Virus record (IMG/VR): IMGVR_UViG_3300010384_000002
Source of the DNA: a virus
DNA: 64,000 bases
Strand: one strand, 5' to 3'
Shown in pieces: positions 16,725-52,634 of this stretch. Numbering within the stretch: position 1 is the first letter of the stretch; every line of letters begins with the position of its first letter. The notes under the pieces are model-generated. The model saw nothing but the letters and a program-made list of their open reading frames with translations. It searched no databases and was not told where the DNA came from. The position numbers and the translations under genes are program-made.

Positions 16725-17147
16725 TTACAGGCCGGTACCGCTCACGTCCAGCGCGGCGAACTGCGCGTTGCTCGTGACGATGCGGTGCGCGGAGACTTCG
16801 ACGCTGCCGCCGGTGTAGGTACAGCCCTTGTACTCGCGCAGCACGTCGTTCTCGTCCTTGCCGTAGGTGGTGAACGTGAACACGTTGCCCTTGAGGACGA
16901 CGTCGGAGTTTTCCGCCGTGATGCCGGCTTGACGGCACAGATCCTTGATCAGCACCATCTTGGACACGCTCAGCGAGTGGCGCGCCTGACCGGGCACGTA
17001 CTCGACCACTTTCGCATCACCGATGCCCGACGCCGGCTCGTGGCCGTAGTCGTCGCTCATCTGGACGCTTTGCACCAGCCCGATATCCTTGCCGTCGAAC
17101 GAGACGACGGTGCGATTACCCGAGCGGACTTTCAGATTTTTCTGCAT
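16725..17147 (-). CDS. Tail tube protein
   Basis: 140-aa ORF directly after the sheath gene, with the size and position typical of myophage tube proteins. Confidence 0.75.
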   Translation of the reverse strand: MQKNLKVRSGNRTVVSFDGKDIGLVQSVQMSDDYGHEPASGIGDAKVVEYVPGQARHSLSVSKMVLIKDLCRQAGITAENSDVVLKGNVFTFTTYGKDENDVLREYKGCTYTGGSVEVSAHRIVTSNAQFAALDVSGTGL

Positions 17148-17163: not shown

Positions 17164-18882
17164 TTACGCCGAAGCCGAGCCGCTGTACGGGACAGCGGCC
17201 ACCTCTTGCAGCACATAGTTGGTCGGCAGCACGATGGCCGCCTCGTAGGCGATCCGGATGGCGGTGCCATCGATCCAGCCTTTCAGCTTGCGATACGGCG
17301 GGTTATCCGCATCACCGACGATCACGCCAGGGCCCATCGGCTCAGCCACCGCGCAGGCGTCCAGGGCAGCGCGGACGTACGTCAGCGCGTTGTTCAGGCT
17401 CATCGGCCCGAGCTTCTGGCCGCGCACCTTGTCGGCCGCTTCCTGCGCCGAGCGGCGCACGTAATCGGCGGCAGAGCCGGCCGAGACTTCGGTGCGCAGC
17501 AGGTTGTCCGGGTTCGAGGTGTAGGTCGTGACCGACTGGACCACCTTGACGGTGCCGTTATCGTCTTCCAGCGGCAGCACGCCCGCCTGCAGCAGCGCAT
17601 CGGTGTCGGTCGGGTTAGCCAGCTTGCGCTCGACGCCCTGCACCTTGAGCGACTTGGCGGTCAGCGGGGTGCCCGGCGCCATGCTCGCGGCCATGCCGGC
17701 CAGGATTGCGGCGACGACATACGGCGGGTACAGCGTGAGCTTGTTCTGGCCGTTGTAGTCGTACACGCCCAGGTGGGTATAGGCCGTGCGGTCCGAGTTG
17801 AGCACGGCGGCGGCGGCGCTGGCCACCGCGTCGGTGGTGCCGACATCGGGACCCACGAACGAACGGCGCATTTTCTTGGTGGCGTTCGACATGAACACGC
17901 AATGCGCGTCGACCATGGCGTGCACGGCCGGCAGCGGCGACAGCGCGGCGATCCACTGCACGTCGTCCTTCTTGAGCACGTCCAGGGCGCTCTGCCATTC
18001 CGCGTTCGTGACAACGCCGTCGGATGCGCCGGACAGGTACGTGAAACCGACGTTCGTCGGCGGGGCGCCAGCGCCGACCGGGCGCGAGGCATCCACGAAG
18101 CCCTCGGCAATGCCGTTGAACCAGTCGATGCACGCCTGCAGGTGCGCGGTGACGCTGACGGCTGCGCTCTTGCAATCGGTGGCGGCCATCGTGTCCAGGC
18201 CGTTCAGGGCTGGTTTCGTGCCGTTGTTGTCCAGCACCGACGCGGAAAAGCCCGGCTCGGTGTTGATGCGGTCGACCAGCTCCTGAATCGTCGGGAAGTC
18301 GTTCAGGTCCAGGGCCGTGTTGGTGGCGCCGTAGATCAGCGTGACGGTGGTGTTGGCCACGGCGATGGTGGCGGTTGCCTGCGCGCCCGTGTAGCGCACC
18401 GACAGCGCATTGCGCGCGATGTTGTCGCCGCTGTAGTAGTTGTTGCCGTACTGGGTGGTGAGCTTCTTGCCCGCGATCGAGCCGGATTCTACCTTGTACT
18501 TGATCGAGTTGTTCGGGCGGCCGTAGTCGGTCGACACCAGGGCGATCGATGGCTGGGTCGCCGCGTCCTTGAGCGTGGCCGAGGCCTGCGTGGCCGGGTT
18601 CACGCGCACGAATTTCACCGTCGACGGGGAACCCGCTTCGCTCGACGAGGCAAACGCCTTTTCGATCGCCTTGAGGGTGCTGTCGTCGCCCTTGAGGGTG
18701 TTGCGGGCATCATCCGGCGAGCTGAACGACAGCACCGTGAACGGCTTGCCGCCGGCCGAGCGGCCTAAAATCGCGACGGCGTTGCCGGTGCCGGCGCTCG
18801 CCTCGTACATGGCCGCATCGTTGATGGCCGACGCGCTCGTCGGGGTGATCAGCTGGCGGCCGCCAAAATACACTTTCGACAT
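17164..18882 (-). CDS. Tail sheath protein
   Basis: 572 aa. Position, size and the N-terminal pattern (MSKVYFGGRQLITPTSASAINDAAMYEASAGTGN) are typical of contractile sheath proteins. Confidence 0.8.
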   Translation of the reverse strand: MSKVYFGGRQLITPTSASAINDAAMYEASAGTGNAVAILGRSAGGKPFTVLSFSSPDDARNTLKGDDSTLKAIEKAFASSSEAGSPSTVKFVRVNPATQASATLKDAATQPSIALVSTDYGRPNNSIKYKVESGSIAGKKLTTQYGNNYYSGDNIARNALSVRYTGAQATATIAVANTTVTLIYGATNTALDLNDFPTIQELVDRINTEPGFSASVLDNNGTKPALNGLDTMAATDCKSAAVSVTAHLQACIDWFNGIAEGFVDASRPVGAGAPPTNVGFTYLSGASDGVVTNAEWQSALDVLKKDDVQWIAALSPLPAVHAMVDAHCVFMSNATKKMRRSFVGPDVGTTDAVASAAAAVLNSDRTAYTHLGVYDYNGQNKLTLYPPYVVAAILAGMAASMAPGTPLTAKSLKVQGVERKLANPTDTDALLQAGVLPLEDDNGTVKVVQSVTTYTSNPDNLLRTEVSAGSAADYVRRSAQEAADKVRGQKLGPMSLNNALTYVRAALDACAVAEPMGPGVIVGDADNPPYRKLKGWIDGTAIRIAYEAAIVLPTNYVLQEVAAVPYSGSASA

Positions 18883-27159: not shown

Positions 27160-28620
27160 TTAGAACGGCTTCCACACCTGCGTGCGGCTGATGATGTTTT
27201 TGATCACGATGTGCTGCCGGCGCTTGGTGATGCGCAGGTAGCCGCAGATCATTTGCAGCCACGGATCGATCGGGCTGTTGACGGCCGCCATCGGGATCTT
27301 GATCATCGGCATGAACTGCTTCCAGCTGATCGCGTGGTCCGACGCCGACAGGTTCAGGATGTAGGCGTTGGTCGAGCCCGGAACTTCGCGGTTCTTGTCC
27401 AGGAACACGGTGGTGGCGCCGGTCTTCGGGATGCGGCACATTTCGCGCATGTCCGACAGGGCATTGGTGCCGCCGCGACGCGAACGGTAGATCACGTAGC
27501 CGGTTTCATCGCCGCCGCCAGCAGCGGTGATGGTCAGGGCGACATTGCCGCCGGCGGCCACGGCTGCCTGCGCGGTGGCGATCGCGGTCGACTGGCCGGC
27601 CTTGCTGATGCCCGTGACAGCGTAGTAGTACTGGCCAGCGTTGTCAGCGGTCCAGGCCGAATCGGCGCCGCCCGAAGCGTTCACGGCCACGGCCACGGCG
27701 CTCGGCTTGTTGCCGGCCAGCTTGGCCGCGATCTTGGCGTGTGCACCAGGGCGCAGCTCGAAAACGCGCTTCATCTTCTCGTCGCGGATGAACACGTCCT
27801 GCGAGGTGGCGATGTCGCCCCAGGCGGTCTTGATCGCCTGCACGTGCGCGCCGTAGGTCAGGTTCTTGCCGCTCGAATCCAGCGAAACGCGGAAGGCCGG
27901 GTCCAGGTGCGTGTTCAGGTCGGTCTGCACGGTGCCGGACATGAAGATGTCGGTCGAGGTGCCGAAGTTCTCGATGCCCCACACGGTTTCCGCCGCCTTG
28001 CTGATCGGGTCCATGCCATCCAGGGCGCCGCCTTTCAGGTCGATGATGTGGTCAGCCGAGCCCAGGAGCTCCATCTGCGTTTTCAGGCCGTTGAACTCGG
28101 TCGGCACCACGCGATCGTCACCCTCGAAGGTGAGGTATTCGATGTCGGACAGCAGCTGGCGCGCGCCGTTCGAGGCTTCCACCGCCTTGGCCGACACGAT
28201 GTTGTTCTGCGCGTTCAGGACCAGCGACACTTTGCGGTAGGTCGACAGGTATTTCACCTGACCGACTTGGCGAGCGTAGTCGCCTTCGGCTTCTTCGGCC
28301 TCGCCGGATTCGGTGTTGGTCGAACCACCCAGCACGCCGCCGATGCCGTACTGCTCGGTCCATTCGTCAACCGTTGCGGTTGCCGACGGTTTCGGCAGGC
28401 GGTTGAACAGGACGAAATGCTTGTTGTCCTGCACGGTGGCCTGCATCGTGGTGTCCAGCGACTGGATGCGCAGCGCGGCGCCGCCTTCCAGGCTGGCGGA
28501 ATCCGAGCCGTAGCCCGCTTCCAGGGATTTGTTCAGCGCGGTCAGCTCGGCCATGCCGAAGGCGCCGGTGAGCGTTTCCCCTTGGCCCGCGTTGTTCAAA
28601 ATATTGTCGATAGTGCTCAT
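27160..28620 (-). CDS. Major capsid protein (HK97-fold type)
   Basis: 486 aa. It follows the protease and scaffold genes, has a GGAALRIQSLD-type N-terminal motif, and is followed by a strong terminator. Confidence 0.8.
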   Translation of the reverse strand: MSTIDNILNNAGQGETLTGAFGMAELTALNKSLEAGYGSDSASLEGGAALRIQSLDTTMQATVQDNKHFVLFNRLPKPSATATVDEWTEQYGIGGVLGGSTNTESGEAEEAEGDYARQVGQVKYLSTYRKVSLVLNAQNNIVSAKAVEASNGARQLLSDIEYLTFEGDDRVVPTEFNGLKTQMELLGSADHIIDLKGGALDGMDPISKAAETVWGIENFGTSTDIFMSGTVQTDLNTHLDPAFRVSLDSSGKNLTYGAHVQAIKTAWGDIATSQDVFIRDEKMKRVFELRPGAHAKIAAKLAGNKPSAVAVAVNASGGADSAWTADNAGQYYYAVTGISKAGQSTAIATAQAAVAAGGNVALTITAAGGGDETGYVIYRSRRGGTNALSDMREMCRIPKTGATTVFLDKNREVPGSTNAYILNLSASDHAISWKQFMPMIKIPMAAVNSPIDPWLQMICGYLRITKRRQHIVIKNIISRTQVWKPF

Positions 28621-28635
28621 TTATTCCCTCGTGGG

Positions 28636-29379
28636 TTACTTGGTGGAAAACACTTTGGTGCGGATGCCGTCCGGAACGGCGACACCGCTACCAATGGCAG
28701 CCTCGGCCGTTGCCACTTCCTGCAGGGTCATGCGGCCTTCTTTCTGCAGGTCGAGGCACTTGGCTAGGAATTCGTTCGGGGGCAGACCATCGCCGTCGCC
28801 GCCGTTGTTCAGCGACTTGGCCAGCGGGGTGCCGCCGCCGGCGCCCGCCGGGTTGGTGACGCTCTTGCGGCCAGCCGGCTCGTTGCGCAGCGCGTCGAAG
28901 TCGGCGCGCAGCGTGGTGATGGTTTCGCCCTGCGACTTGACCAGGGCGCCCGCCTCGGTCAGGGACTTGGTGAGCTCAGCGATCTGGCCGTTTTGCGTGC
29001 TCAGCAGCATGATGGTTTGGCCCAGCAGCTTCTTGACGGACTCGCCGTCCGAGTCGACGCGCTCGCTCAGCGCCTTGAGCATTTCGCCGCCGTCGAAGGC
29101 TTCGATCTGGGTGCCGTCTTCCAGCGTGAACGTCATCGACTTGCCCAGCGGCGTGGCACCATCGCCAGTGCCGGGATTCGCGGCAGCGGCCGCCGCTGCG
29201 TCGGCGGCGGCTTTGGCGGCTGCCGCTGCGGCCTCCTTGGCCTCCAGCTCCTCGGGCGTCTTGGTGCCATCCGTGGTGCCGGCCGGCGGATTGGTGACGG
29301 CGCCGTCGGTGGACGTAGCGCCCAGGCCATTCGCGGCCATCAGGGTGGCCAGGGATTTGGCCAGGGTTTGAAAGCTCAT
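28636..29379 (-). CDS. Scaffolding protein
   Basis: 247 aa, Ala/Glu/Lys-rich and predicted helical. It lies between the protease and capsid genes. Confidence 0.7.
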   Translation of the reverse strand: MSFQTLAKSLATLMAANGLGATSTDGAVTNPPAGTTDGTKTPEELEAKEAAAAAAKAAADAAAAAAANPGTGDGATPLGKSMTFTLEDGTQIEAFDGGEMLKALSERVDSDGESVKKLLGQTIMLLSTQNGQIAELTKSLTEAGALVKSQGETITTLRADFDALRNEPAGRKSVTNPAGAGGGTPLAKSLNNGGDGDGLPPNEFLAKCLDLQKEGRMTLQEVATAEAAIGSGVAVPDGIRTKVFSTK

Positions 29380-29382: not shown

Positions 29383-30264
29383 TTATCCTTTTGTGAGTGC
29401 AAGTTGTAGATCGTTGAGGAATCGCTGGACGTACCGGGCCGCCGAGGCGGCCGGGATGCCGAACAGCTTTTGCGCCGCCGCCACCAGCTCGGATTGCGAC
29501 GAAACGCCAACGCTTCCGGACTGAATCGCGTTGGAGAATTGGTCACGGAAATCCCAGTAACTCATCAGCTGCTTGTCGAGCGACTGGACGCGCAGGGCGG
29601 CGCCGCCCGTGAGCGAGGCCGAATCGGTGCCGTAGCCGGCCTCCAGGCCCTTGAGCATCGCGCCCCAGCTCTTGGCCAGCGGACCGAATGCCGTGGTGCT
29701 CACCGTTTGCAGGTGGTCGTTCACCGGGGTCTTGGAAAATCCGATGTTGGTCCAGCGCACGCCAGTGACGACGCCGACCTTGTTGCCATCAGAATCGAGC
29801 TCGACGCTCTTGCCGGTGACGGCGCCACCCACGGACGGATACCAGCGCTCGGGCGGGTTCACATCGGTGAGCGAGGACCAGAACAGATTCGCCTTGAGCG
29901 CCGCCGGGCCTTCGCCGGCCTTGATGTGCCCCTTGACGAACGTGGTGCCCTTCTCGATGCGCACCGACGCCGGCATGCCGATCTCGTAGGCCATGTAATC
30001 GGGAATGCCCCGCTTGGCACCGATCTGCGTGTAATGATCGATGTCCAGGTTCCCGAACTTGAGGTAGTAGTCGGCCGAATTGGCCAGCGCCTTGGCCAGC
30101 ACCTTCTCGCCCTGCTGGTCTTTCACCTCGTTGCTGGCCTCGATGTAGACGAAACGCTCAGCCCCTTCCGTGGCCGGCGTCGCCTTGAGCATCATCCCGC
30201 CCACCGCCAGGTGAGTGGGAAGCGCTTCGAGCAGCAGAGAATCGTCGTCGTGGCTGATGTCCAT
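29383..30264 (-). CDS. Prohead protease (putative)
   Basis: 293 aa, in the protease position of the head module. It shares a 24-aa block with the capsid N-terminus. Confidence 0.6.
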   Translation of the reverse strand: MDISHDDDSLLLEALPTHLAVGGMMLKATPATEGAERFVYIEASNEVKDQQGEKVLAKALANSADYYLKFGNLDIDHYTQIGAKRGIPDYMAYEIGMPASVRIEKGTTFVKGHIKAGEGPAALKANLFWSSLTDVNPPERWYPSVGGAVTGKSVELDSDGNKVGVVTGVRWTNIGFSKTPVNDHLQTVSTTAFGPLAKSWGAMLKGLEAGYGTDSASLTGGAALRVQSLDKQLMSYWDFRDQFSNAIQSGSVGVSSQSELVAAAQKLFGIPAASAARYVQRFLNDLQLALTKG

Positions 30265-31117: not shown

Positions 31118-31465
31118 ATGCGTATGCACAATCCCCCGCACCCCGGCCTGCTGGTCAAGGAATATTTGGGTGACGTTACCGTGACGGAGGCGGCCGAGCG
31201 CATGGACGTCAGCCGCGTCACGCTCCAGCGCATCGTGAGCGGTAACGCCGGCATCTCGCCGGACATGGCCTACCGCCTGAGCGATCTGTTTGGCACGAGT
31301 CACGAACTGTGGTTCAACCTACAGAAGAACTATGAGATGCACGTTGCCGGCATGGCCAAGCGGCCGCGCATTGCGCCCATCACCTCGCCGTTCAAGAAAA
31401 AGACGGCCGAGCGTATCGTATCGGCTCGACCGAAAAAGGCTACCGCATCCGCCACAGCAGCGTGA
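31118..31465 (+). CDS. higA: HigA antitoxin (XRE HTH)
   Basis: [17 protein letters not shown]...[58 protein letters not shown] at 31106-31111. Confidence 0.85.
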
Positions 31466-32012
31466 TCGACTTGATCATGCCGGGCCGGTCCCTGCTGGCC
31501 CTCACCTTGCGCACGAACTCGTCCACCGGCATGGCTACGATCCCGCCAAAGAAGCGCGGGTCGTCGTAGTGCCCCAGGTAGGCCTCGCGCGCGGCCTCGA
31601 TCGACGGAAAATCGATCATCACCTTGTCCTCGTCGTACGTGGCCCAGTCCTTGCGGCGCATCTGGCGCACGATGTACACCTCGCGCGCGTCCGCGTACGG
31701 GCCGATGTAGACGTCGACGGGATCGCCGTCGGCGCCCTCGGTACCGGCCACCTCGCCGTAGGCGTAGCGGAACTCCGTTCGCCAGGGCTTGCCACCCTCG
31801 TCCACGCCCTCGCGCACGGTGCCCACCGGGTTCTCGATGTTCAGCTGCAGGCCGTGCCAGGACATGCGCGGCTTATAGTAGTTGCCGGCGGCGGCCTGGG
31901 CGGGCGTAGGCTGCTTCCAGGCCGGGTCGGTTGCGGCCGCCAGCGCGCGATGCGCGGCGGCGCGCAGCTCGGCCTGCGCGATCGCCTTGAGGAACAGGAC
32001 CGGCTTAGACAC
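31440..32012 (-). CDS. Inorganic-pyrophosphatase-signature protein in the head module
   Basis: DGDPVDV fits the family-I PPase signature D-[SGDN]-D-[PE]-[LIVMF]-D-[LIVMGAC]. The likely start is GTG 32012, overlapping the upstream stop by 8 nt. Confidence 0.55.
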
Positions 32013-32297: not shown

Positions 32298-33500
32298 TCA
32301 TTGCGCGTGGTTGCCCTTCGTGGGCGATTCTTTGGCCTTGTGGAAGTGCTGGTCGAGCCACTTCTGGAAATCGGGGTCATCGTGCGGGCCGGCCTCGGGC
32401 ATCGGGGTCCAGCCGCCACGGCAGTGCGGATGCACGGTCCCGGCCGGAACCCACCACATCTCTGACGGCAGCCGCTCGACCAGTTCGTCGCCCACGCGCT
32501 TGCGCGGCGCGGCGCTGCGCCCGATGTTGGTCTTGCCCGGCCACACTTCCTTGTCCCCATCCTTCTCGGGGGCGTCGGCGGGCACCACCTTCATCACCAC
32601 GCCATCGATGCGTTTGCAGAACGGACAGGCGCCCTTGTACTGCTCGATGCGGCGCACGCGCGCGCCGGGCGTGAGCGTGGCCAGGAACCCTTGATTGGCG
32701 TTCTCGCCGGCCTCGGTGACGGCGATGCGGCGCCAGTCTCGGTTCAGGGTGGCGAACTCGTCGAACAGCTTCTGTTGCAGATCCTGCCGCGTAGCCACCG
32801 GGTCGCCGGTCATCTTCTGGAACGTGTGGGCCATGATGGCCTTCTTGAGGCGCTGGCGCGTCGACGCGGCCAGGGCCACGACCTGCTCGGCGCAGCGCGC
32901 GTTCCCGTATTCCATGATGGCGTCCAGGCGGCTGAACTTGAACGCCTTCTGCGCGGCTGCCACGGTGATCGGCATCGCGGCGATGACCGGGTCGAGCTCG
33001 GGCACCGTGGGCGCCTTGCCGGCCATGACGGCCTGCACGCGGCCCAGGATCGACGAGCGCACCGCGAACCACTCGGCCTCGGTGCGCAGCACGGCCTCGG
33101 GCATGTACGTGTGCAGCAGGTAGTCGACCACCAGGGACCAGTCGTCGAAGGCGAAGGCCGCCGGCGGCAGGCTGGTGAGGTACAGGCGCACCAGGGCGGA
33201 TTCCTCGGCCGTCCAGTTCTGGACGAAGCCGGCCGGCTTCACGACCGGCACGGCGGCCGGGTCATGCAGCTTGCCATCGGCCCAGTCCATGAGGCCTTGC
33301 TTGACGTGCTCCAGCATCGTAAGCCCGCGCGCGGTGAACAGCTCGATGATGCGCTGGATGAACGGGTTGTGGTGCGGTTCCCAAATGTCGTGCGGATCGC
33401 CGCCCTCGCCGGAAATGGCCTTGGCCAAGCTCTCCAGCGCATGGTCGGTGCAGCAGGCCGACAGGCCGCCCAGGTCGACCAGCAGCGGCTTATTTCCCAT
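32298..33500 (-). CDS. Head morphogenesis protein (SPP1 gp7 / Mu F family)
   Basis: The real start is MGNKPLLVDLGG at ATG 33500. It has DWRRIAVTEAGENANQG and C-terminal CPFC...VHPHCRGGW motifs typical of Phage_Mu_F. It follows the portal gene. Confidence 0.75.
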   Translation of the reverse strand: MGNKPLLVDLGGLSACCTDHALESLAKAISGEGGDPHDIWEPHHNPFIQRIIELFTARGLTMLEHVKQGLMDWADGKLHDPAAVPVVKPAGFVQNWTAEESALVRLYLTSLPPAAFAFDDWSLVVDYLLHTYMPEAVLRTEAEWFAVRSSILGRVQAVMAGKAPTVPELDPVIAAMPITVAAAQKAFKFSRLDAIMEYGNARCAEQVVALAASTRQRLKKAIMAHTFQKMTGDPVATRQDLQQKLFDEFATLNRDWRRIAVTEAGENANQGFLATLTPGARVRRIEQYKGACPFCKRIDGVVMKVVPADAPEKDGDKEVWPGKTNIGRSAAPRKRVGDELVERLPSEMWWVPAGTVHPHCRGGWTPMPEAGPHDDPDFQKWLDQHFHKAKESPTKGNHAQ

Positions 33501-33873
33501 CGCCCGCCTTCTTCTTGCCCGGCGTGTGCGCCGTGACCTCGTGCCAGTGCACGCGATGCTCGCGGCCGGTGTCATCCGCCACCGTGGCGCCGTGCTCGCC
33601 GGCGGCGGACACTTCGCCCGAGCCATTGAACGCGCCGGCCGTGAACGCGACGTTGTCGCCCTCGGACACGTTGTGCGGGCCGAACTCGCCGCCGGCGGCG
33701 CAGGTCTTGAGCAGCGCCAGCAGTCCCACGAAATTCGGGTGCGACAGATCGACCTGCGGCTGCTTCGCGGCAGGCTTGTCCTGCCCCAGCTGGGCTTTGA
33801 GGTTCTTGTGGAAGTCGTCGGCCGCCTTCTTCTTGGCGCTGGGCGTGGGCAGCGCCTTGAACATCAGCATCAT
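33490..33873 (-). CDS. Hypothetical protein
   Basis: 127-aa ORF with an ATGA overlap with the portal stop. Confidence 0.55.
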   Translation of the reverse strand: MMLMFKALPTPSAKKKAADDFHKNLKAQLGQDKPAAKQPQVDLSHPNFVGLLALLKTCAAGGEFGPHNVSEGDNVAFTAGAFNGSGEVSAAGEHGATVADDTGREHRVHWHEVTAHTPGKKKAGDGK

Positions 33874-35645
33874 GGCATCAGGTCCTTGGGTTGGTAGACC
33901 GGCAGGCCGAACGCCTTGCCGAAATCGAAGTCGTTGCCGACGGCCGTCGGCGGCTCGCTGGTGGCCAGCTCCTTGGCGGCGCGCTTACCGGCGGGCGCCG
34001 GTTTGTCGTCATCGCCATCGGCGCCCTCGCCGTCGCCATCCTCCCCAGGTTGCGCAGCCTCGGGCGGCGTGATCAGGCCTTGCTGCTGCGCGCTGGCCAT
34101 GTACACCTGCATCAGGCTCGGGTTCACCGGCGCCTTGCCGATCAGCGGGTCCTCGTGCTCGGGCTGGCCATCGCGGGCGCGCATCTCGTCCACCGTCATG
34201 GTGAGCTTGCTGCGCTCGTGGCGCTTGTCCAGGTCCTCGGGGTCCAGGCCGGTGAAGCGGAACACCAGATCGGGCGAGAACTCCCCGACGACGTAGTCCG
34301 TGATCAGCTGCTGGAAGTACGACAGCAGAGGGCGCAGGCCGGAATCCTTCGAGGCGGTCAGTTTCTCCTCGGTGTCCGAGCCGGCCAGCGGGCTCGTGCT
34401 GCCGCCGCTGAACGAGTCGAAGTTGATTTCGGCCGGCGAGATCCCGTAAATCGCGCAGATCAGCGACGTGAGGAACGTCATCCACTTCGCGAAATACATC
34501 TCGTTGAACTCGACGTCGAATTTCTCGAACGAGGCCTTGCTTTTCTCGTCGGAGGAAACCATCACCGGCAGCGCCCAGGCGTTGTTCACGCCCTTGCACA
34601 TGGCATTCCAGTAGCGCTTGAAGGCGATGATGTCCTTGTCGTCGTACTTGCCGATGAGGTGCATCATCCCCTTGGGGATCGCGTTCGAGTCGAAGCCCTT
34701 GATGTTGTACGTCATGGCGTTCAGGTAGCCGGTGACGGTCTTCACCAGCAGCTCGACCTCGGAATGGCCATAGCCGGCCACCAGCACGTTGCTGCGCGGG
34801 TTGCGCGGCTCGTAGATCAGGTCGTCATGGGTGTATGGCGTGCAGATGCGGCCCTGCACCACCTGCAGGGCGAAGATGTCCGGGTTGCCTTGGTAGCCCT
34901 TGTCCGTGCACAGGCGGATCGTGGAGCCGTCGACGGCATAGAAGCCGGACACGCCCAGCTTCTTGTCGCGCTTCCATTCCACCTCGATCGCGGCCGAATC
35001 CATCGACAGCGTGTCGCGCGTGAGCTTGCCCATGAACTGGGCGAACGAGTCGCGGCCGAGCGCCTTGCGCAGGCGCGGCTTGAACTCCCAGCCGCAGTTC
35101 GAGATGAAGCGGTTCAGCTGGCGCACCTGCTCCTGCTCGGACTTCGTGAGGTGGTGGTCCTTGTCCATGTGGCGGATCTCGTAGCCGGGCAGGTCGTTGC
35201 CGCACTCGGACACCGCGCAAAAACGCTGCACCTGCCGCATGCGGGTGAGCACGACGGCCGACAGCACCGGGGTCTGATCCACGACCGCGCGCATCGAGTC
35301 GAACGACATCAGGCTGGGACGCTCCCAGTATTCCCCCTGCATGTTCAGCATGAACTCGTCGACCTGCACCGACTGCATGCCCGGCTTGCGGTTGCGCAGG
35401 TTGTTCGACGGGTACGGCACGATGTTGGCGCTCATCGCCTTGTTCACCATCAGGTGCTCGTCGGCCATGGCGAGAAAGTCGCGCAGGTGGCCCATGGGCG
35501 CCAGGTCGTTGGCGGTGGGCATATAGGCCTTTTGGAGCTCGGCAAGCGCATCGTTGCGCTCGTCCTGCGGAGCGTTCTGATTGAATGCCACCACGTCGGC
35601 GCGATCGCGCGCGCGGCCCCGGCGGCGCTGATGTTGGTCGGTCAT
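33870..35645 (-). CDS. Portal protein
   Basis: 591 aa. Size, position upstream of the MuF-like gene, and an acidic C-terminus are typical of portal proteins. It has an AGGAGG SD and a GTCGTGAC motif 32 nt upstream. Confidence 0.8.
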   Translation of the reverse strand: MTDQHQRRRGRARDRADVVAFNQNAPQDERNDALAELQKAYMPTANDLAPMGHLRDFLAMADEHLMVNKAMSANIVPYPSNNLRNRKPGMQSVQVDEFMLNMQGEYWERPSLMSFDSMRAVVDQTPVLSAVVLTRMRQVQRFCAVSECGNDLPGYEIRHMDKDHHLTKSEQEQVRQLNRFISNCGWEFKPRLRKALGRDSFAQFMGKLTRDTLSMDSAAIEVEWKRDKKLGVSGFYAVDGSTIRLCTDKGYQGNPDIFALQVVQGRICTPYTHDDLIYEPRNPRSNVLVAGYGHSEVELLVKTVTGYLNAMTYNIKGFDSNAIPKGMMHLIGKYDDKDIIAFKRYWNAMCKGVNNAWALPVMVSSDEKSKASFEKFDVEFNEMYFAKWMTFLTSLICAIYGISPAEINFDSFSGGSTSPLAGSDTEEKLTASKDSGLRPLLSYFQQLITDYVVGEFSPDLVFRFTGLDPEDLDKRHERSKLTMTVDEMRARDGQPEHEDPLIGKAPVNPSLMQVYMASAQQQGLITPPEAAQPGEDGDGEGADGDDDKPAPAGKRAAKELATSEPPTAVGNDFDFGKAFGLPVYQPKDLMP

Positions 35646-45228: not shown

Positions 45229-45933
45229 TTAGGCGGCCTGTTTCAGCTTGGAATCCAGCAGCGTGCGGGCGATCGCCTTGCCGGCCAGCTTGAAGCTGAC
45301 GCGGGCGGCGCCCTTGCGAACGATGCCCATCACGCGGACAGTGCCGGCCGAGGTTTGCAGGCTGCGCTCGACGTCCCAGTCGTTGCTGCCGGCGTGCTCG
45401 CCGCACAGCTTGCGCACGTCGGCCACCAGCTGGTCCAACTTGACGAGCTCGTCGTTCGCCGGCTTCTCGTGCTGGCGGGTGCTGATCGCCGGGCCGAACT
45501 GGCCGGCGGACGCGAACCGCGCCACGGCCGAGGTGCTGGCCGAGGTGCGGGCCGTGCTGGCCATCTCCAGTGAGCGCTGCACGGGCGCCGGGCGGGCGTT
45601 GTGGTAACGCGAGTAGGGACGCTGCGGCTGCAGGCGCGCCATGATGCCCCACACGCTGTTGTACGCCGTATGCAAGCCGTGGTCTCGAGTCGAGCCCTTG
45701 AAGTTGCGGTAGGTGATGCTGGAGAGGTGAGTGGCGATGGTCGCACCCACGAGCTTGCGCGGGATCAGCGCGCGGAACTGGTAGTCGCGGCCGTCCAGGG
45801 TTTCGGCCGTGTGGCCGGGGAAGATGCGCTCGATGTCGCCAGGGCGGCGAGCGCGCACCAGCAGGTTATCGACGTCGCGCAGGTCTTCCGGGCTGACGAT
45901 CGACAGGAATGCGTTGTTGAGGCAGATCCACAT
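45229..45933 (-). CDS. Hypothetical protein
   Basis: 234 aa (MWICLNNAFLSIVSPEDLRDVDNLLVRARRPGDIERIF...). Its GGAAGGAG SD lies inside an 8-bp leader hairpin. Confidence 0.6.
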   Translation of the reverse strand: MWICLNNAFLSIVSPEDLRDVDNLLVRARRPGDIERIFPGHTAETLDGRDYQFRALIPRKLVGATIATHLSSITYRNFKGSTRDHGLHTAYNSVWGIMARLQPQRPYSRYHNARPAPVQRSLEMASTARTSASTSAVARFASAGQFGPAISTRQHEKPANDELVKLDQLVADVRKLCGEHAGSNDWDVERSLQTSAGTVRVMGIVRKGAARVSFKLAGKAIARTLLDSKLKQAA

Positions 45934-45985
45934 GGGTGACTCCTTCCGTTGAAGTGTTGTTCGACGGAAGGAATCATAACCGACA

Positions 45986-46002
45986 CTAACGCTAAGCGCT
46001 AG
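45986..46002. promoter_or_regulatory. Third copy of the operator palindrome
   Basis: CTAACGCTAAGCGCTAG overlaps the Nudix gene stop, upstream of gene 45229..45933. Confidence 0.5.
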
Positions 46003-46961
46003 TCTTTTTTCATATTAAGTTCATCGCCAAGCGATAGGATTTTCCGATCAACTTCCGTGTTCAGAACGGACGGCAATTGGTCCCTCGGAACGAGCTTGAC
46101 GGCCTGCGCTTCCCAGCCCATGTGCGCCGGCGAGCCGCCCACGCGCCGGGCGCGGTAGTAGCGCGCCACGGTGGTGGTGCGCTCGATGTCGCCCCAGTAG
46201 CCGGTGATTTCCACCTGCAGCCCGGTTTCCTCGAACGTCTCCTTGATGGCCACGGCTTGGAACGACAGGCCCGGCTCGTGGCGCCCCTTCGGGAACGTGG
46301 CCTCGTAGCCGCCGAACTGGTTGGTTGGGCACATGACCCACACGCGGCCGTCGGGCTCCTCGATGATGACGCCGGCGGCGCGCTCCTTGGGTTTGCCGCT
46401 CGCGGCCTTGGCCACCTTCATCAGCGGCTCGTCCAGGTCCTGCATCTGGCCGGGGACGTTGGCCCAGCCCTCGGGCGAGGTCGGCGCATCCTCCCACGGC
46501 GCGAACGCGACGCCGCCCAGCTCGGCCGGCACATCGCAATCGGGCACGAACGTGGCCACGGCCTTGGGGTCCGCCCAGGTGTCCGGAGGGCTCTGTTCGC
46601 TCGGCTCGTTGATGGTTATGGTCTCGCCCTTATCGCCCTCCTGCGGGTGCGTGATCGCATTCGGGTATTTGGGCGCCGCCGGCGCCGCATCGAACAGGTC
46701 GTCGGCCCACTTCTTGGCGGCCGGCTTGCCGCCGTACTGCGGACCGACCACGCCCTTGGGCTTCATGAACAGGGCCAGCTGCTTGCCCTTGGCGTGCACC
46801 TTCGTCTCGTGCGCGGGCACGAATGTGCCGTCGCCCTTGGTGTAGGCGGCCACGTGGGCCTTGGCCAGCGGCATGTTCATCTTGACGCTTTGCGCCATGC
46901 CGATCAGTTTGCCATCGAAGAACACGACCACCTTGCCGCTATTGATCATGCCTCCCATCAT
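45999..46961 (-). CDS. Nudix hydrolase with N-terminal extension
   Basis: The real start is MMGGMINSGK at ATG 46961 (ATGA overlap). Nudix box: GRHEPGLSFQAVAIKETFEETGL. Confidence 0.75.
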   Translation of the reverse strand: MMGGMINSGKVVVFFDGKLIGMAQSVKMNMPLAKAHVAAYTKGDGTFVPAHETKVHAKGKQLALFMKPKGVVGPQYGGKPAAKKWADDLFDAAPAAPKYPNAITHPQEGDKGETITINEPSEQSPPDTWADPKAVATFVPDCDVPAELGGVAFAPWEDAPTSPEGWANVPGQMQDLDEPLMKVAKAASGKPKERAAGVIIEEPDGRVWVMCPTNQFGGYEATFPKGRHEPGLSFQAVAIKETFEETGLQVEITGYWGDIERTTTVARYYRARRVGGSPAHMGWEAQAVKLVPRDQLPSVLNTEVDRKILSLGDELNMKKD

Positions 46962-47455
46962 GCCCCCTTGCGTTTCGCCGAGCCGGTCAGCATGCGGATC
47001 AGCTGCTGCACGCGCTGGCCCATCTTCATGTTGGCCATGTCGTCGTCGCCATCCTTGAGCGCGTCGACGACGGCCCACACGAGCCACGCATACAGGACCT
47101 GATACGGATCGTCGCCGTGCTTGGCGCGCTGGCCCTGCCAGTAGTGCCCCAGGTCCGCCTTGATGGTTTCCTGCAGGCCGCCCACGCGCGTGTTCCAGCC
47201 CTCGATCGGCAGGTACGCCGGGTTCTCGCCAGCGAAGTCGCGGGCGAACGCCGCCGCGCGCTCATGCGCACGGGCGGTCATCTCCTGCGCCTCCATCGTT
47301 CCAGCGCTGCGCGCCTTGACCCATTCCAGGATCTCGGTCAGGTAGGGCTGGACGATGCCGGCCACCACGTTCGGGTTGCCCAGGTAGTTGGGGGCCATCT
47401 GCTGCTCGAACGACGGCGGCAGATCGGTGAAACGATCGGTGCGATTTTGGTCCAT
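46958..47455 (-). CDS. Hypothetical protein
   Basis: 165-aa ORF. Confidence 0.55.
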   Translation of the reverse strand: MDQNRTDRFTDLPPSFEQQMAPNYLGNPNVVAGIVQPYLTEILEWVKARSAGTMEAQEMTARAHERAAAFARDFAGENPAYLPIEGWNTRVGGLQETIKADLGHYWQGQRAKHGDDPYQVLYAWLVWAVVDALKDGDDDMANMKMGQRVQQLIRMLTGSAKRKGA

Positions 47456-47456: not shown

Positions 47457-50400
47457 TCACACGGTCCTTGCGAAAGATTTAACGAATATTACCACCCGCT
47501 TACGCAGAGCGGCAGTTGCTGCTGGGAAAATGACGAGCGATTTCCCCAGCTTGCCCAGGCCTCCCACCTCGGCCACATAGCCCTCGTGCGGCGGCAGCGC
47601 GAGCAGGTCCAGGGTGATACCGTCCGGGCTGGAGGCGTTGCCCTTCTTGACGCCCAGGACGACGAAGCGCTGGCCCATCAGGGTGGTCACCTCCATCTCG
47701 CCCCCGCCGTTCTTGTGCACGTAGTTGCCCTCGGCGTCTTGGCCCGAGCCGGCGAAGCGGCCCGACCCGAGCGACGCCATGGCCTTGGCGCCCTTGGCGA
47801 ACTTGATGTTCAGGTAGGCGCCCGAGCCGAATTTCGCGTTGTCGCCCCAGTCCTTGAAGATCGACGTGCACATGGAGTCAGCATTCTGGAACACCAGGCC
47901 GGCGCCCTCCTTGAGCAGTTGCTGCTTCATCGTGTCCGGCAGGTTCATCCAGCGGCCGACGGTTTCGCCCTCCTCGAACTCATAGGCCTCGTTGTAGATC
48001 GTGCTGGCCAGCTGTTGCGCGCCGCCGCTGTACGAATGGCCCTTCGAGCTGATGCTGATGGTCTTGTCGCCCTTGTTCCAGAAGCGGTTCGCTGCGCCCG
48101 AGTCCTGAATCGAGTTGACCAGGGCCTTGGTGGCCGTGGACACGCCCTGATACCACTTCTTGGCCTTGGTCACGAAATCGGTTTTGAGATAGCTGGTCTT
48201 CGGCGGGACCAGGTCCTTGACCACATCGGCGCCCACGTGGCCGAGCTTCATCCAGAAACCGATGACCTTGTCCGAGGAGATGGTGTTGATGTTCTCGCCC
48301 GGCTTGATGTAGCCGGCCGCCTCCGACACTTCCTCGATCGAGCCGCCGCCGATCGGGGGCAGGTCCAGGCCTTCAACGGGCGGGTGCGCGATCGCGGACA
48401 GCAGGTCGCACAGCGCGGCGTGGTGGTTCTTGATGTCCTTGGACGGGTGCTGTCCGATCGGCTTTTTGCCCAGGTAGGCGCCGGTTTCCTTATCGTAGGC
48501 GTCGTAGTGGTAGTCCTGCAGCGCCTTGAGATTGCCCTGCTTGGCGAACTCGATCAGGGCCGCGTCGTCGACCGTGTTCTGGTCGTTGATGTGCTTCTTG
48601 GACGACAGCGGGCCGCCCTTGCCGGGGTAGTTGTTGAAGTCGATGGGCGGCGGCAGGTCGGACGTGTTCACGGCCAGCTTGGTGATGTCTGGCGCCGGCG
48701 CGTTCCACGGGTCGGCGATGCCCAGCTTTTTCAGGATGAACTCGCGGCGCGCCACCAGCTTGGACGCCAGGGCCTCCTGCTCGGCGCGCGTGCCCGGACC
48801 GAACGTACGGCACAGCTTATCGATCTGGTTCGGGTGCATCTTGGCCAGCACGGCGCCGCCGGTCTCGAGATCCGCCGGCGTGATCTTGCCGAACACGGCG
48901 GCCGAATTCGCGTTCTTGGCCGGGTCCAGCAGCGTGTCCAGCTCGGTGACGGTTTCACCGAAGGCGTCGCCCTTCTTGCTGCCCTGCGCGCGGTAGATCA
49001 GCGAGCCGCCGACGTCGACGCGCACGGCCTTGCCGTCCTTGAGCAGCATGTTGTCGTTGGACAGGCCGACGACGTCCCAGTTGGCCAGCCACGCATCGAA
49101 CACGAACCCTTTGTGCGCGCCCTCGGCGCCGGCCAGCGCGGCCGCGTCACCCTTCGTCAGGCCATCCACCCACTTCGAGGCGATGCCCAGTTGGCCCGCG
49201 CGCTTGACCAGGCGCAGCTCGGGCACGTCGACACCCAGCATCTGGTAGAACTTCGCGGCCAGCAGCTCGTTTTTCACCGTGTCCGGATCGCTCGGGAATT
49301 TGCAGTACCACTCCTGACCCTTCGCGTCCTTGAAGCGGCCGCCGGGGTTGGAACCCTTCTGCGGCCCGGTCTGCTCCCACGTGTCCGCCACCATGGCGCT
49401 GACCTTCCCCACCTTCACGGTGGTGGGCACCGACATCGTCGGCGCGGCGCTGGCCGTCGACGCGGCAGCTGCTGGGGCTGGAGCGGCCGCCGGTGGCTCG
49501 CTGGCGCCCTTCGTGCCATCCATCGCAGCCACGAGATACTTGGCATATTTGGCCATGGCTTGCGCATTGGCGCCATAAGTCGAGCCGTCCGGGTTGATGG
49601 CCTTCCAGCCCACCGCCTTCACGTGCCCAGCTGGAGTCATCTTGACCAGCTTGGCCAAGCCCTCCGCGCCGCCGCTTTCCGCCGCCGCCTTGAGGGCCTT
49701 CATCGTCTTGGTCATCTTGATGGAGTTTTTGCCCGACAGCTTCGGCATGGGCACGCTCGCGGCTTTCTCCTTGAGCACCTTGGGATCGGTACCCATCTTG
49801 TGCCACCGGCCGTTCTCGAACACCAGCATGCCGTCGGCGCCCTGCTTCGTGTCGCCGTCCTTCGGGCCCTGCTCGGCGGCTGCCGGCGCGGTGGCGCCGC
49901 TCTGCTCGGCCTCCAGCTTCGCATACGCCTGCACCGCCCAGGCCAGCACCGGCTCGAAACCCTGCACCTCGTCGATGCCATCGATCAGCTTGCCCAGCTT
50001 CTTGGTCGACTTCTCGGCGTAGGCGGACTGGACCGCCTGCAGCGCCATCTGTGCGCCGCTGCTCAGCTGGGAGACATCGGGCAGCGGAATGTCCGCCGGC
50101 GCGGCGGGCTTGGCTTGCAGGTAGGCCAGCGCCTGCTCGCCATACGCCAGGATCAAGCCGGCGTTCGTGAACGGCGGGATCGGCTTGTCCCCGAATGGCG
50201 CCTTGAGTTCGGCAAGGGCGCTCTCGATCGTCGCGGGGATGCCCTGCTCCAGGCCCACCTCGATCGCATGCGCGTACGCATGGAGGCCGGTTATCTCGGG
50301 CTTTTCTGGCTTCGCCGGCGGCGCGGCGGGCGCGGTACCGGCCAGCGCGTGCTCGTGCAGCTGGACGAGTTTGTTTTCGGCCTTGATCGCGCTCATGTCG

Positions 50401-52634
50401 TCGTCCATGGGCAAGTCCATGTGCATCGCCAAGTCCGCCATCGCCTCGGCCTTCTCGTCAAGCCAATGATCCTCATTCGACAGCTTGAGCGCGTTCATGG
50501 CCTCGGCCTGCGCCTTCGTCGGTACCATGCCCGATCCGATCGCGGCTTTCCATCCGCCGACCAGGGCGTCCTGCTTGTCGGCATCCGACAGGCCCGGCTC
50601 AGCCGCCGGCTCGGCGCCTTCCAGGTGGGCGATAGCGGCCGTGATGTACTGGTGGATCGGCGCGAAGCTCAGCATGCCCTCGGTGGAGGCCTGCATGAGT
50701 TCCAGCTTGGCCAAGTTCCCGGTGGCGAAGTAGTGCTCGACGTCCTTGAGTACTTCGATCTTCGATGGGCTCATACCCTCCGTCGACGGCGGCACCGGAA
50801 CGCTGGCGGCCGGCGCAGCTGCTGGCGCGGGCGCGGTGGCCGGTTCCTTGACCTTGATGCTCACCACCTTGAGTTTCGGGTGCTCGCCGGCCTTCTGCCC
50901 CGGCGCCACCTGATGGCGCGAGCCCAGGAATTCCAAGGCCTCGTTGGCCAGCTTGGCGGCCTTCTTGCCGTAGGTGTTCGTGCCGTAGCTCATGGCCAGC
51001 AGCGCGTCCTTGTCGCCTGCCTGCAGCGCCGCGATGATGGCGTCCACCTTCGGGTTGAACGCCTTGGCGTTCGTGTTCGACAGCGGCACCTTGGCATCGT
51101 GGAAGGCGTCGACCAGCTGCTGCACGGCCTTGCCGTCGTCCGGCTCGGCGGTGGCGGCGGCCACCTTCGCATCGTGCGCCGGATCAGCGGCCGGCGCCGG
51201 CTCGTAGGTGGCCGCGTATTCGTCGTAGCCCAACGTGGTCAGCACCGATGCCAGCTCGGCCTCATGACCAGGATGCGCGGCGATCCATTCCTGCGCGGCC
51301 TCCTTGACCGTCTTCGGGCCGTTGGCGGCGTCTATCACGAACGCCATGGCGGGCGTATCTGCCGCCGACAGGACCCAATGCCCGTCTTTCAGCACCAGCG
51401 TGCCACCCTTGCCTTCCTTGGTGTCGCCTTCCTTCGGACCCGCGTCGACTGGCGCAACAGCGACCGGCGTCACGCCCTTCGCCTGCGCCAGCGCGGCCGC
51501 GTGCAGGTCCACCAGCAGCTTGCTGTTCACCGTCTTGCCCTTCCACGACGCCTTTTCCGGGTTCGGCATGGCCTCCAGGCCTGCGACGTCGCCGGCGGCC
51601 GCCAGGGCGATGATCTTGGCGCTCACGCCCTCGTAGTACTTCTTGACGCCGGTGGTCGTCTTGCCCTCGACGAATTCGGGGACCGTCAGGCCGGTGGTCT
51701 GCTGCGCTGCCGCTGCGGCCTCCATCTTCGGGGCCTTGATGGCGGCCGGGTCGATGTAGTCGCTCATCTGCTTCGGGTAGAAGCCATTCGCCTGCAGGTG
51801 GCCCTGCTCCTTGCTGGCCAAGTGGGCATTGATCTGGCCCTTGGCGTTCGTGGCGCCGGTGTTCAACACCCAATACTCGGTGCCGTGCGCATCGGTGAAC
51901 GTAGGCGTTCCGGCCTTCTCGTGCTTGGTGTTGTAGGCGGCCTTGGCCTCGTCCAGCTTGTCGATGGCAGCGGCCTGCTGCGCAGACAGCGTAGGCGCGG
52001 CGCTGGCGGGCTTTTCTGGCTCGGCCTTGGGCTCGACCTTCGACGCCGGCGCGGAGGCCTTGGCGGGCTCCTGCTGGGCCGGAATATTTTTCGGAATATT
52101 TTGCGGTTCGTTTTGTAGCTCGGCCGGCTTCTCATTCGCCGGCGGCTGCTTCGCCACCCAGGCGGCGTATTCCGCGTCCATCGCGGCGCCCTTGCCTGCC
52201 GCGTGCACGGCCTCGGTGATGGCCTGCTGTTTGTCCGCCGGCGCGGCGTGGAAGTGCTTCCATTCGCCCGCCGTCGGCGCCTGCCCGGCGAGCAGCTTTT
52301 TCTTGAGCGTGGCCAAGCGCGCGGCCGCCGATTCCGCGTCCTGAATCTGCGTCGCGTGATGCATGACCAGGGCGGCCTGATCCTCGGCGCTCATGCCCGC
52401 GAAGCCGGGTTCTTCCTTGAGCGCCGTATGGGCTTTCTTCTGGCTGTACGTGCCGGCGCCGCCGGCAACCTTGTGATGGTCGTGGTCATCGGAGACGTGC
52501 ACCATGGCGAAGTGGCCGCCGACCACCTGCCCGTTTTTCTTGGTGAACTGCGGAATCCAGACCTGCTTTTTGACGGTGGCTTTCAGGAAGAAAACCGGGG
52601 CACCGTAGGTGTGTGCGTGTTGGGTATCGAGCAT
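47457..52634 (-). CDS. Giant polyvalent protein: repeats + atypical protein-kinase-like domain + C-terminal ADP-ribosyltransferase
   Basis: About 1725 aa. The kinase-like region (about 48700-49370) has WYCKF, NELLAAKFY, FDAWLANWDVVGLSNDN and DVGGSL motifs. The ART R-S-E pattern is GRWMNL, DSMCTSIF and GGGEMEV (EME at 47691-47699). ATG 52634 has a GAGG SD. The track start is TTG 52640. Confidence 0.75.
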   Translation of the reverse strand: MLDTQHAHTYGAPVFFLKATVKKQVWIPQFTKKNGQVVGGHFAMVHVSDDHDHHKVAGGAGTYSQKKAHTALKEEPGFAGMSAEDQAALVMHHATQIQDAESAAARLATLKKKLLAGQAPTAGEWKHFHAAPADKQQAITEAVHAAGKGAAMDAEYAAWVAKQPPANEKPAELQNEPQNIPKNIPAQQEPAKASAPASKVEPKAEPEKPASAAPTLSAQQAAAIDKLDEAKAAYNTKHEKAGTPTFTDAHGTEYWVLNTGATNAKGQINAHLASKEQGHLQANGFYPKQMSDYIDPAAIKAPKMEAAAAAQQTTGLTVPEFVEGKTTTGVKKYYEGVSAKIIALAAAGDVAGLEAMPNPEKASWKGKTVNSKLLVDLHAAALAQAKGVTPVAVAPVDAGPKEGDTKEGKGGTLVLKDGHWVLSAADTPAMAFVIDAANGPKTVKEAAQEWIAAHPGHEAELASVLTTLGYDEYAATYEPAPAADPAHDAKVAAATAEPDDGKAVQQLVDAFHDAKVPLSNTNAKAFNPKVDAIIAALQAGDKDALLAMSYGTNTYGKKAAKLANEALEFLGSRHQVAPGQKAGEHPKLKVVSIKVKEPATAPAPAAAPAASVPVPPSTEGMSPSKIEVLKDVEHYFATGNLAKLELMQASTEGMLSFAPIHQYITAAIAHLEGAEPAAEPGLSDADKQDALVGGWKAAIGSGMVPTKAQAEAMNALKLSNEDHWLDEKAEAMADLAMHMDLPMDDDMSAIKAENKLVQLHEHALAGTAPAAPPAKPEKPEITGLHAYAHAIEVGLEQGIPATIESALAELKAPFGDKPIPPFTNAGLILAYGEQALAYLQAKPAAPADIPLPDVSQLSSGAQMALQAVQSAYAEKSTKKLGKLIDGIDEVQGFEPVLAWAVQAYAKLEAEQSGATAPAAAEQGPKDGDTKQGADGMLVFENGRWHKMGTDPKVLKEKAASVPMPKLSGKNSIKMTKTMKALKAAAESGGAEGLAKLVKMTPAGHVKAVGWKAINPDGSTYGANAQAMAKYAKYLVAAMDGTKGASEPPAAAPAPAAAASTASAAPTMSVPTTVKVGKVSAMVADTWEQTGPQKGSNPGGRFKDAKGQEWYCKFPSDPDTVKNELLAAKFYQMLGVDVPELRLVKRAGQLGIASKWVDGLTKGDAAALAGAEGAHKGFVFDAWLANWDVVGLSNDNMLLKDGKAVRVDVGGSLIYRAQGSKKGDAFGETVTELDTLLDPAKNANSAAVFGKITPADLETGGAVLAKMHPNQIDKLCRTFGPGTRAEQEALASKLVARREFILKKLGIADPWNAPAPDITKLAVNTSDLPPPIDFNNYPGKGGPLSSKKHINDQNTVDDAALIEFAKQGNLKALQDYHYDAYDKETGAYLGKKPIGQHPSKDIKNHHAALCDLLSAIAHPPVEGLDLPPIGGGSIEEVSEAAGYIKPGENINTISSDKVIGFWMKLGHVGADVVKDLVPPKTSYLKTDFVTKAKKWYQGVSTATKALVNSIQDSGAANRFWNKGDKTISISSKGHSYSGGAQQLASTIYNEAYEFEEGETVGRWMNLPDTMKQQLLKEGAGLVFQNADSMCTSIFKDWGDNAKFGSGAYLNIKFAKGAKAMASLGSGRFAGSGQDAEGNYVHKNGGGEMEVTTLMGQRFVVLGVKKGNASSPDGITLDLLALPPHEGYVAEVGGLGKLGKSLVIFPAATAALRKRVVIFVKSFARTV

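Follow-up and report, generated by a model that had tools for sequence, protein, structure and literature searches.

The 64,000-nucleotide (nt) stretch of viral DNA considered here, taken from IMG/VR record IMGVR_UViG_3300010384_000002 and called the window below, encodes a Nudix protein of 320 residues that starts with a leader of 34 residues, and part of this leader resembles the N-terminus of the tail tube protein encoded in the same window. We suggest, from sequence comparisons, that the leader is a head-targeting propeptide removable by the head maturation protease, with a tube-like patch that is incidental or exapted, and that the Nudix enzyme is a head cargo protein; we put the probability of this reading at roughly 55%. 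An earlier reading of the same DNA (the original prediction) had taken the tube-like strand as a graft onto an enzyme, suggesting recruitment of that enzyme into the tail or virion.

Relatives exchange the leader (residues 1-34) quickly, as a modular cassette. The closest different homologue of the Nudix protein (P0002, 88% identical in amino acids) is encoded on a contig that we aligned with the window. The flanks are about 95% identical in DNA, comprising the end of the upstream gene and then everything from the codons for AKAHVAAYTKGDG onward, while in place of the window's 95-nt block P0002 has an unrelated block of about 57 nt encoding MALVFLTPAAARELGAKI. Since the window and this relative, with its different leader, diverge by only about 5% in the flanks, exchange of the cassette was probably a recent event. 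Leaders in the family of Nudix homologues are mostly 6-8 residues long (M..ILFLK) and occasionally 14-76, for an overall range of 5-76. What does not vary is the end of the leader: in 99 tabulated leaders, lysine stands at position -1 in 99 of 99 and leucine or phenylalanine at -3 in 88, and the residues that follow the lysine are alanine, serine or glycine and then histidine. The lysine of the window protein, K34, is retained in 90% or more of the 81 homologues aligned. Directly after the lysine, nearly all of the 120 homologues examined have a conserved N-terminal module, which is modeled with a predicted local distance difference test score (pLDDT) of 72-89 in the AlphaFold2 (AF2) model. 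The first strand of the tube-like patch, VVVFF, coincides with the hydrophobic strand of every family leader, and the remainder of the patch forms the spacer before PLAK.

In the window protein the leader ends NMPLAK|AHV, with the bar marking the predicted cut, and the general form of the motif is (L/F)-x-K|(A/S). Among 60 predicted proteins, the strict pattern P-L-x-K-(S/A/G) is found only four times, twice in the scaffold-like protein, once in the head maturation protease and once in the Nudix leader. The PLAK|A of the leader compares with LNK|S in the capsid protein, LAK|S, LGK|S and LAK|S in the scaffold, and LAK|S in the protease, all of these being predicted sites. The capsid protein is homologous to A511 Cps (E=2e-22, 23% identity), and in GenBank the mature peptide of A511 Cps is annotated from after EDALK|SFTTGYG (K23|S24), an experimentally mapped cleavage site that aligns with K31|S32 of the window capsid protein in TALNK|SLEAGYG. 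Because the tube-like segment of the Nudix leader lies upstream of a motif that matches the capsid, scaffold and protease sites, it is probably cut off in the prohead. The motif also fits a related phage, Dolphis, in which the scaffold counterpart, gp9, has nine h-x-K|(S/A/G) sites (h, hydrophobic) in 213 residues, and in which the capsid protein has DLIK|A, the Nudix protein DPLVK|G and the giant ADP-ribosyltransferase-type (ART) protein LLIK|A; the Dolphis protease conforms to it as well.

Three further window proteins have an N-terminal tag of the form hhhFhK|A, two of them encoded inside the head module. These are the ART protein (...PVFFLK|ATV), a protein beginning MMLMFK|AL and a protein beginning MSKPVLFLK|AI, the last of which contains a domain also found in DarB-like, polyvalent and minor-head proteins. 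ART homologues from other phages likewise begin with hhhhK|(A/S) tags, in the versions MLVLAK|A, AVLLIK|A and MRLLLLK|S. The combination of a hydrophobic strand with K|A is a candidate for a family-wide cargo tag.

Apart from the leader, the Nudix family has a module AHVKGYT(R/K)KDGT(Y/F)VxPH directly after the predicted cut. Near the N-terminus of the window ART protein (near 52500-52580, minus strand) there is a looser version of this module, ATVKKQVWIPQFTKKNGQVVGGH, for which the relatives have FAHQAGY..GRW, and it is possible that the AHVKGYT-type sequence is a small module common to mature cargo.

The capsid protein and the head maturation protease also share a stretch with each other. 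Residues ~26-57 of the capsid protein (28452-28502) and ~205-236 of the protease (29574-29624), both encoded on the minus strand, have in common LEAGYG(S/T)DSASL.GGAALR(I/V)QSLD, with 40 of 51 nt identical and a BLASTP E of 4e-9, and this is the strongest cross-protein similarity in the window. PHROGs aligns residues 198-234 of the protease to a major-head-protein profile. The stretch appears to be a prohead-docking segment common to both proteins, and it illustrates the kind of graft that the original prediction had in mind far more clearly than the match between tube and Nudix protein does.

Carriage of the Nudix protein in the virion is very likely, judging from the annotation of a relative. 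The homologue in Yersinia phage fHe-Yen8-01 (fHeYen801_131, in OR620963) is annotated as "particle associated protein", as are the ART toxin of that phage and the small protein encoded between them (fHeYen801_130), and relatives keep these three genes in one order (ART, small protein, Nudix). The leader of fHeYen801_131 is 3-7 residues long and has nothing tube-like in it. Of the proposed recruitment into "tail or virion", the virion part is thus sustained by fHeYen801_131, while the tail as destination and the tube-like segment as recruiter are not. The Mecenats66 paper contains no virion proteomics, and in the literature we found no paper joining Nudix, virion and ART in a phage.

The gene for the small protein, which has 165 residues in the window, invariably lies between those for ART and Nudix, and start-stop overlaps link it to them. 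The protein lacks an N-terminal tag, matches no family in Pfam and PHROGs scans, and might serve both enzymes as adaptor or chaperone. The ART protein is identified from the annotations of its relatives, as ADP-ribosyltransferase (toxin); a Pfam search with the whole 1725-residue protein returned no domain. Its gene contains internal repeats (49819-49869 with 51391-51441, and 51121 with 51934) in the N-terminal two-thirds of the protein, which is rich in alanine, proline and lysine; the repeats are of the type GPKEGDTKEG..GTLVLKDG / GPKDGDTKQG..GMLVFENG.

Residues 192-308 of the Nudix protein, the C-terminal 117 residues considered as a domain, match Pfam NUDIX (PF00293) with 48.6 bits against a cut-off of 21.1. 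The AF2 model has a pLDDT of 85.8 overall and above 94 across the Nudix domain, and Foldseek assigns this domain a probability of 1.00 to the Ap4A hydrolase 3i7u, Ndx1, MutT1 and RppH, so that the nearest folds are Ap4A/Ap6A hydrolases, MutT1 and RppH. The Nudix box (46280-46350) reads G-x5-L-x7-K-E-T-F-E-E-T-G-L, compared with the canonical G-x5-E-x7-R-E-U-x-E-E-x-G-U; the EE pair and the glycine are retained, the first glutamate is replaced by leucine and the arginine by lysine, and the family consensus deviates in the same way.

Taken as a propeptide, the leader, made up of a hydrophobic strand (VVVFF), a spacer and PLAK|A, would bring the Nudix enzyme into the assembling prohead. The head maturation protease would cut after K34, and the mature enzyme, starting AHVAAYTKGDG..., would remain in the head with the ART toxin and the other tagged proteins and enter the cell together with the DNA. 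The tube-like patch would simply supply the hydrophobic strand and the spacer of the tag. What the analysis shows is the motif distribution, the cassette swap, the tube similarity with its statistics and the Nudix fold; cleavage, location in the head and the origin of the patch are inferred.

Several points weigh against this proposal. Cleavage and head location are drawn from motifs and from one annotated site in the distant A511, the capsid protein of which is only 23% identical. The h-x-K|(A/S) motif is short, and the argument from its enrichment was set up after the data had been viewed. The match of the leader to the tube profile, at 6e-8, is stronger than a neutral spacer needs to be, which leaves room for a function linked to the tube. 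The label "particle associated" is a GenBank annotation, and in OR620963 the large terminase has the label and the tube does not, which means that these proteomics-based labels are incomplete or noisy and are to be used with care.

The resemblance between leader and tube needs to be described in some detail. The counts given in the original prediction are exact: positions 46878-46928 and 17058-17108, which are both read in frame from the minus strand, agree at 39 of 51 nt, and in the Nudix open reading frame (ORF) residues 11-30 pair with residues 13-32 of the tube. Translated, the match is VVFFDGKLIGMAQSVKM against VVSFDGKDIGLVQSVQM, with 12 of 17 residues identical, and protein comparison agrees that the two proteins are otherwise unrelated. 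When all 51-mers of the window were compared with one another, five independent direct pairs had at least 39 of 51 nt identical, where the tail of the distribution predicts about 1-2 by chance, so the nucleotide-level match alone is borderline. At the protein level the resemblance goes beyond chance and is real but modest. A hidden Markov model (HMM) was built from 80 tube homologues, with the window tube left out, and searched against the 1032 six-frame ORFs of the window; it ranks the Nudix ORF second after the tube itself (13.6 bits, E=0.0025), and the next ORF has E=2.6. The 34-residue leader alone scores 18.8 bits (E(Z=1)=5.9e-8, a single test), and the best of 200,000 shuffles of its residues reaches 11.6 bits. 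Correcting generously for the comparison of about 60 families with all proteins leaves p at about 0.02.

The aligned part is small and falls on conserved positions. The leader aligns to positions 11-32 of the 141 in the tube HMM (about 22 positions). At 15 of the 23 positions aligned it has the majority residue of the tube family; G10 and G23, which are fully conserved, are among these, as are the strongly conserved D18, G19, V28 and Q26, and also S9 and S27. The tube N-terminus is the most conserved part of its family, with the motif RSGNR(I/V)VVxFDGKQ(I/V)G(L/M)xQSVxMNDDY, and the similarity ends exactly where the invariant DDY of the tube begins, DDY being absent from the leader. The tube gene of the window encodes a full tube protein of the phi812/A511 type (phrog_985), homologous to the solved tail tube PDB 8q01 and 10 further entries (E=4e-41) and also to the A511/P100, Dolphis, PHB04 and ST4 tubes, among others. 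In such a tube, eight strands form a barrel that has a stacking loop (PMC13433997), and we take the matched residues, by position, to be the first strand or strands of this barrel. Our single-sequence model of the tube was unusable (pLDDT 39), so the structural reading of the tube depends on homology to PDB 8q01 and on PMC13433997. The Nudix protein has no full eight-stranded barrel of about 140 residues with stacking loop, as only the 22 or so HMM positions just mentioned align. For the leader, AF2 gives strands at residues 11-15 and 18-23, a hairpin, with low confidence (pLDDT 50-67).

When relatives were searched for the same graft, using the 120 best homologues of the Nudix protein, the tube-like segment was found only in the window protein and was missing from the other 119. 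One homologue, P0007 (contig L102), comes close in length and hairpin pattern with its leader, AVLFVNDKPIALVTSFEV, which scores -0.6 bits against the tube HMM and shows no co-variation with the tube of its own phage (L018, VVSFDGVDIGLIQSV). Because the DNA of the tube-like segment is only 65-76% like that of any known tube, the sequence is either old or from an unsampled donor. We think it probable that the 21 tube-like residues descend from a tube gene as a short patch, or else form a convergent hairpin, and that they are tolerated or exapted in the leader.

Several other explanations of the resemblance can be considered. Two hydrophobic beta-hairpins with a DGK turn might be alike by pure coincidence, with neither ancestry nor shared constraint behind them, in which case the leader would still be a leader. 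The matched segment is short and limited to one phage population, single-sequence BLASTP gives only E=0.003 per query, like a few compositional pairs in the all-against-all search, and neither the chance expectation for 39 of 51 nt nor the p value corrected for all families and segments leaves a wide margin. Coincidence would nevertheless have to account for a score that 200,000 composition-matched shuffles do not approach, a 1000-fold gap to the next ORF in the HMM search, the clustering of matches on family-conserved columns, and the equal distance of both segments from the N-terminus, and on balance we find it somewhat unlikely. Alternatively, the tube-like hairpin might co-assemble the enzyme with the tube, the tube initiator or the tape measure, so that the enzyme travels in or on the tail. 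The tube-profile resemblance is statistically real and falls on the most conserved tube positions, the Nudix family is virion-associated in one relative, and in extracellular contractile injection systems (eCIS) N-terminal signals are known to load the tubes with cargo. The particle-associated homologue, however, has no tube-like segment, and the segment is present in only one of 120 homologues. It is also upstream of a conserved protease-type site, spans no more than HMM positions 11-32 of 141, stops before the DDY and the loop region that follows it (PMC13433997), does not co-vary with the phage's own tube in the case of P0007, and is matched equally well by the tubes of other phages. We regard recruitment to the tail as improbable on this evidence. 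The more specific proposal, that the hairpin works by mimicking the first part of the tube barrel, having arisen when a piece of the tube gene was grafted onto a cargo leader, and that it docks the Nudix precursor on growing tubes, a chaperone or the initiator to give a tail-loaded enzyme, the phage counterpart of eCIS cargo loading, is to our minds quite improbable.

Other explanations concern the DNA or RNA and not the protein. It had been claimed that the Nudix gene copies the tube N-terminus at the nucleotide level, and this is not borne out. Sampling codons from genome usage for the two aligned peptides gives an expectation of 37.3 +/- 2.1 identical positions of 51 (P(>=39)=0.29), and there is no independent DNA-level signal because the observed identity is that expected from amino acid identity and codon bias. 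Over the longer segment, the phage's own tube agrees with the leader at 41 of 63 nt and the tubes of other IMG/VR phages at 44 of 63, and since foreign tubes match as well or better, the leader is no recent copy of the resident tube gene. These two results rule out a recent intragenomic DNA copy. A search of IMG/VR for a donor tube with two degenerate patterns gave no hits and then one ordinary tube together with unrelated genes, and no IMG/VR tube encodes the leader's version of the motif (...VVVFFDGKLIGMAQSVKMN...). A regulatory element of RNA or DNA shared by the 5' coding regions of both genes, the other suggestion made earlier, would be in keeping with 76% nucleotide identity at similar distances from both start codons, but amino acids and codon usage predict this same identity, four of the 12 identical residues have synonymous third-position changes, and the close relative P0002 has the same gene without the element. 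Neither mRNA segment folds better than shuffled sequence (z = -0.68 and -0.04), and this suggestion is in our estimation close to negligible. It might also be that the tube-like segment is untranslated, an intergenic relic upstream of a true start at M28 or M30, as most Nudix homologues begin only 6-8 residues before the conserved lysine. Against this, the G+C content at third codon positions in the leader cassette is 84% in the reading frame and 48% and 30% in the other two, the start codon at 46961 and the upstream stop share an ATGA/TGATG overlap that is also present in P0002, the AAGGGGG upstream of this start codon matches the start used in P0002, no Shine-Dalgarno-like sequence is seen upstream of M28 or M30, and the Joint Genome Institute (JGI) data contain a gene call for the identical 320-residue protein (P0001). 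The frame-specific composition and the ATGA overlap lead us to conclude that the leader is coding and translated, and a relic seems highly improbable.

Table 1. Positions in the window of the genes, leader elements and predicted sites discussed in the text
Feature	Position	Strand	Remarks
Nudix protein gene	45999..46961	-	320 aa from ATG 46961; the second ATG (46958) would serve as start just as well
Hypervariable leader cassette, encodes MMGGMINSGKVVVFFDGKLIGMAQSVKMNMPL	46868..46962 (95 nt)	-	DNA alignment with the P0002 contig
Tube-like segment of leader, aa 9-29, G-KVVVFFDGKLIGMAQSVKMN	46875..46937	-	Tube HMM; contains 46878-46928
Predicted head-protease site M-P-L-A-K|A	46857..46871	-	Predicted cut between K34 (46860-46862) and A35 (46857-46859)
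Conserved N-terminal module of predicted mature Nudix protein, AHVAAYTKGDGTFVPAH	46809..46859	-	Homologue alignment
Nudix catalytic domain, aa 192-308	46038..46388	-	Pfam and fold
165-aa gene between ART and Nudix	46958..47455	-	Stop overlaps Nudix start (ATGA)
Giant ADP-ribosyltransferase-type cargo protein, 1725 aa, N-terminus MLDTQHAHTYGAPVFFLK|ATV	47457..52634	-	Relatives' annotations; 1725 aa in JGI call
Tail tube protein gene, 140 aa	16725..17147	-	phrog_985, 5.9e-30; directly downstream of sheath gene 17164-18882
Tube segment matched, aa 14-30, start of tube barrel (by position)	17058..17108	-	Strongly conserved family motif
Major capsid protein, predicted propeptide cut TALNK|SLEAGYG	27160..28620	-	phrog_752, 5e-83
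Scaffold-like protein with QTLAK|S, TPLGK|S, TPLAK|S	28636..29379	-	Motif search
Head maturation protease with GPLAK|S and MMLK|A	29383..30264	-	phrog_1028, 5e-29
Head-module protein, tag MSKPVLFLK|AI	31440..32012	-	GTG start overlaps upstream stop
Small protein just downstream of portal gene, tag MMLMFK|AL	33490..33873	-	N-terminal motif
Portal	33870-35645	-	Head module, same strand

The window is contained in a JGI metagenome contig, Ga0136216_1000100 (95,435 bp, 65% G+C), from a contractile-tailed phage. Its kin include Bordetella phage PHB04, the Pseudomonas phages Dolphis, Jeremy and Touem01, Yersinia phage fHe-Yen8-01 and Aeromonas phage ST4, among others, and the group around PHB04, Dolphis and fHe-Yen8-01 consists of proteobacterial phages of about 90-95 kb with an ART-Nudix cargo cluster. 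A second contig from the same phage population (L105, JGI Ga0136215_1000654) is 99.4-100% identical to the window; an indel immediately beyond the 3' end of the Nudix gene (45837-45963) distinguishes the two, and in L105 the ART gene call is split. At the left edge of the window there are direct repeats, 1-202 with 697-898 (202 nt, 79% identity, a 51-nt exact core and a spacing of 696 nt) and 215-262 with 578-625 (48 nt, 90% identity and a spacing of 363 nt), which are probably repeated domains of a fibre-like gene running off the window.

If the leader is indeed a head-targeting propeptide, a simple N-terminal tag, consisting of a hydrophobic strand, x and K|(A/S), would mark enzymes for packaging into the head and delivery to the host. 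The tag would be shared by the group of ~90-95 kb phages represented by PHB04, Dolphis and fHe-Yen8-01 and by many metagenomic relatives, and the tagged proteins would include the giant ART toxin, the Nudix hydrolase and the protein with the DarB-like domain. Cargo would then be predictable from sequence, and the tag might be usable for loading foreign proteins. The pairing of ART and Nudix hints at a delivered takeover module directed at NAD/ADP-ribose or at RNA caps. As for the tube-like patch, it would suggest that the rebuilding of leader cassettes draws on any sequence available; as the evidence stands, the patch counts as a curiosity and not as a new targeting principle.

The closest parallel to such a leader is the capsid-targeting sequence (CTS) of phage T4, an N-terminal leader on internal proteins and on the Alt ADP-ribosyltransferase that ends at a head-protease motif, the cargo being packed in the prohead and delivered with the DNA. 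As in T4, a short N-terminal leader is found here on non-structural cargo enzymes that include an ART, and it ends at a (here predicted) head-protease motif; a variable leader of 5-76 residues before a conserved lysine is a CTS-type feature that is present in at least 99 homologues. The differences are that the motif is hydrophobic-x-K|(A/S) and not the (L/I)-x-E| of T4, that the protease belongs to another family (phrog_1028, with an A511-like head), and that the window leader has 34 residues with a tube-like hairpin. Reviews that bear on the T4 CTS are available (PMC9958956, PMC9026906). In giant phages of the phiKZ/SPN3US type, the prohead protease trims many proteins inside the head, recognizing a motif that they share (PMC10052503, PMC7411985). 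The propeptides of these ejection proteins resemble the leader processing predicted here in that trimming takes place at a common motif, whereas the motif and the phage lineage are different and the cargo set here is far smaller. Phages of the A511/phi812 type (Herelleviridae) have a homologous tube and a homologous capsid protein with a capsid cleavage position after lysine, but the ART-Nudix cargo cluster of the window's group was not found in A511 in this analysis.

For the loading of an enzyme into the tube of a contractile system, the nearest precedents are the N-terminal signals of eCIS payloads, such as those of Photorhabdus virulence cassettes (PVC), and the Hcp-effector fusions of type VI secretion systems. 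Hcp fusions carry a whole tube domain, whereas the Nudix leader matches only ~22 of 141 tube positions. The packing signals of eCIS are, to our knowledge, not tube mimics, and we know of no phage example of tube loading by an N-terminal element; the distribution of the tube-like segment (1 of 120 homologues) argues against a tube-lumen packing signal of the eCIS/PVC type. Protease-trimmed cargo leaders, by comparison, are already of a known kind, and the unusual element in the present one is the tube-like patch.

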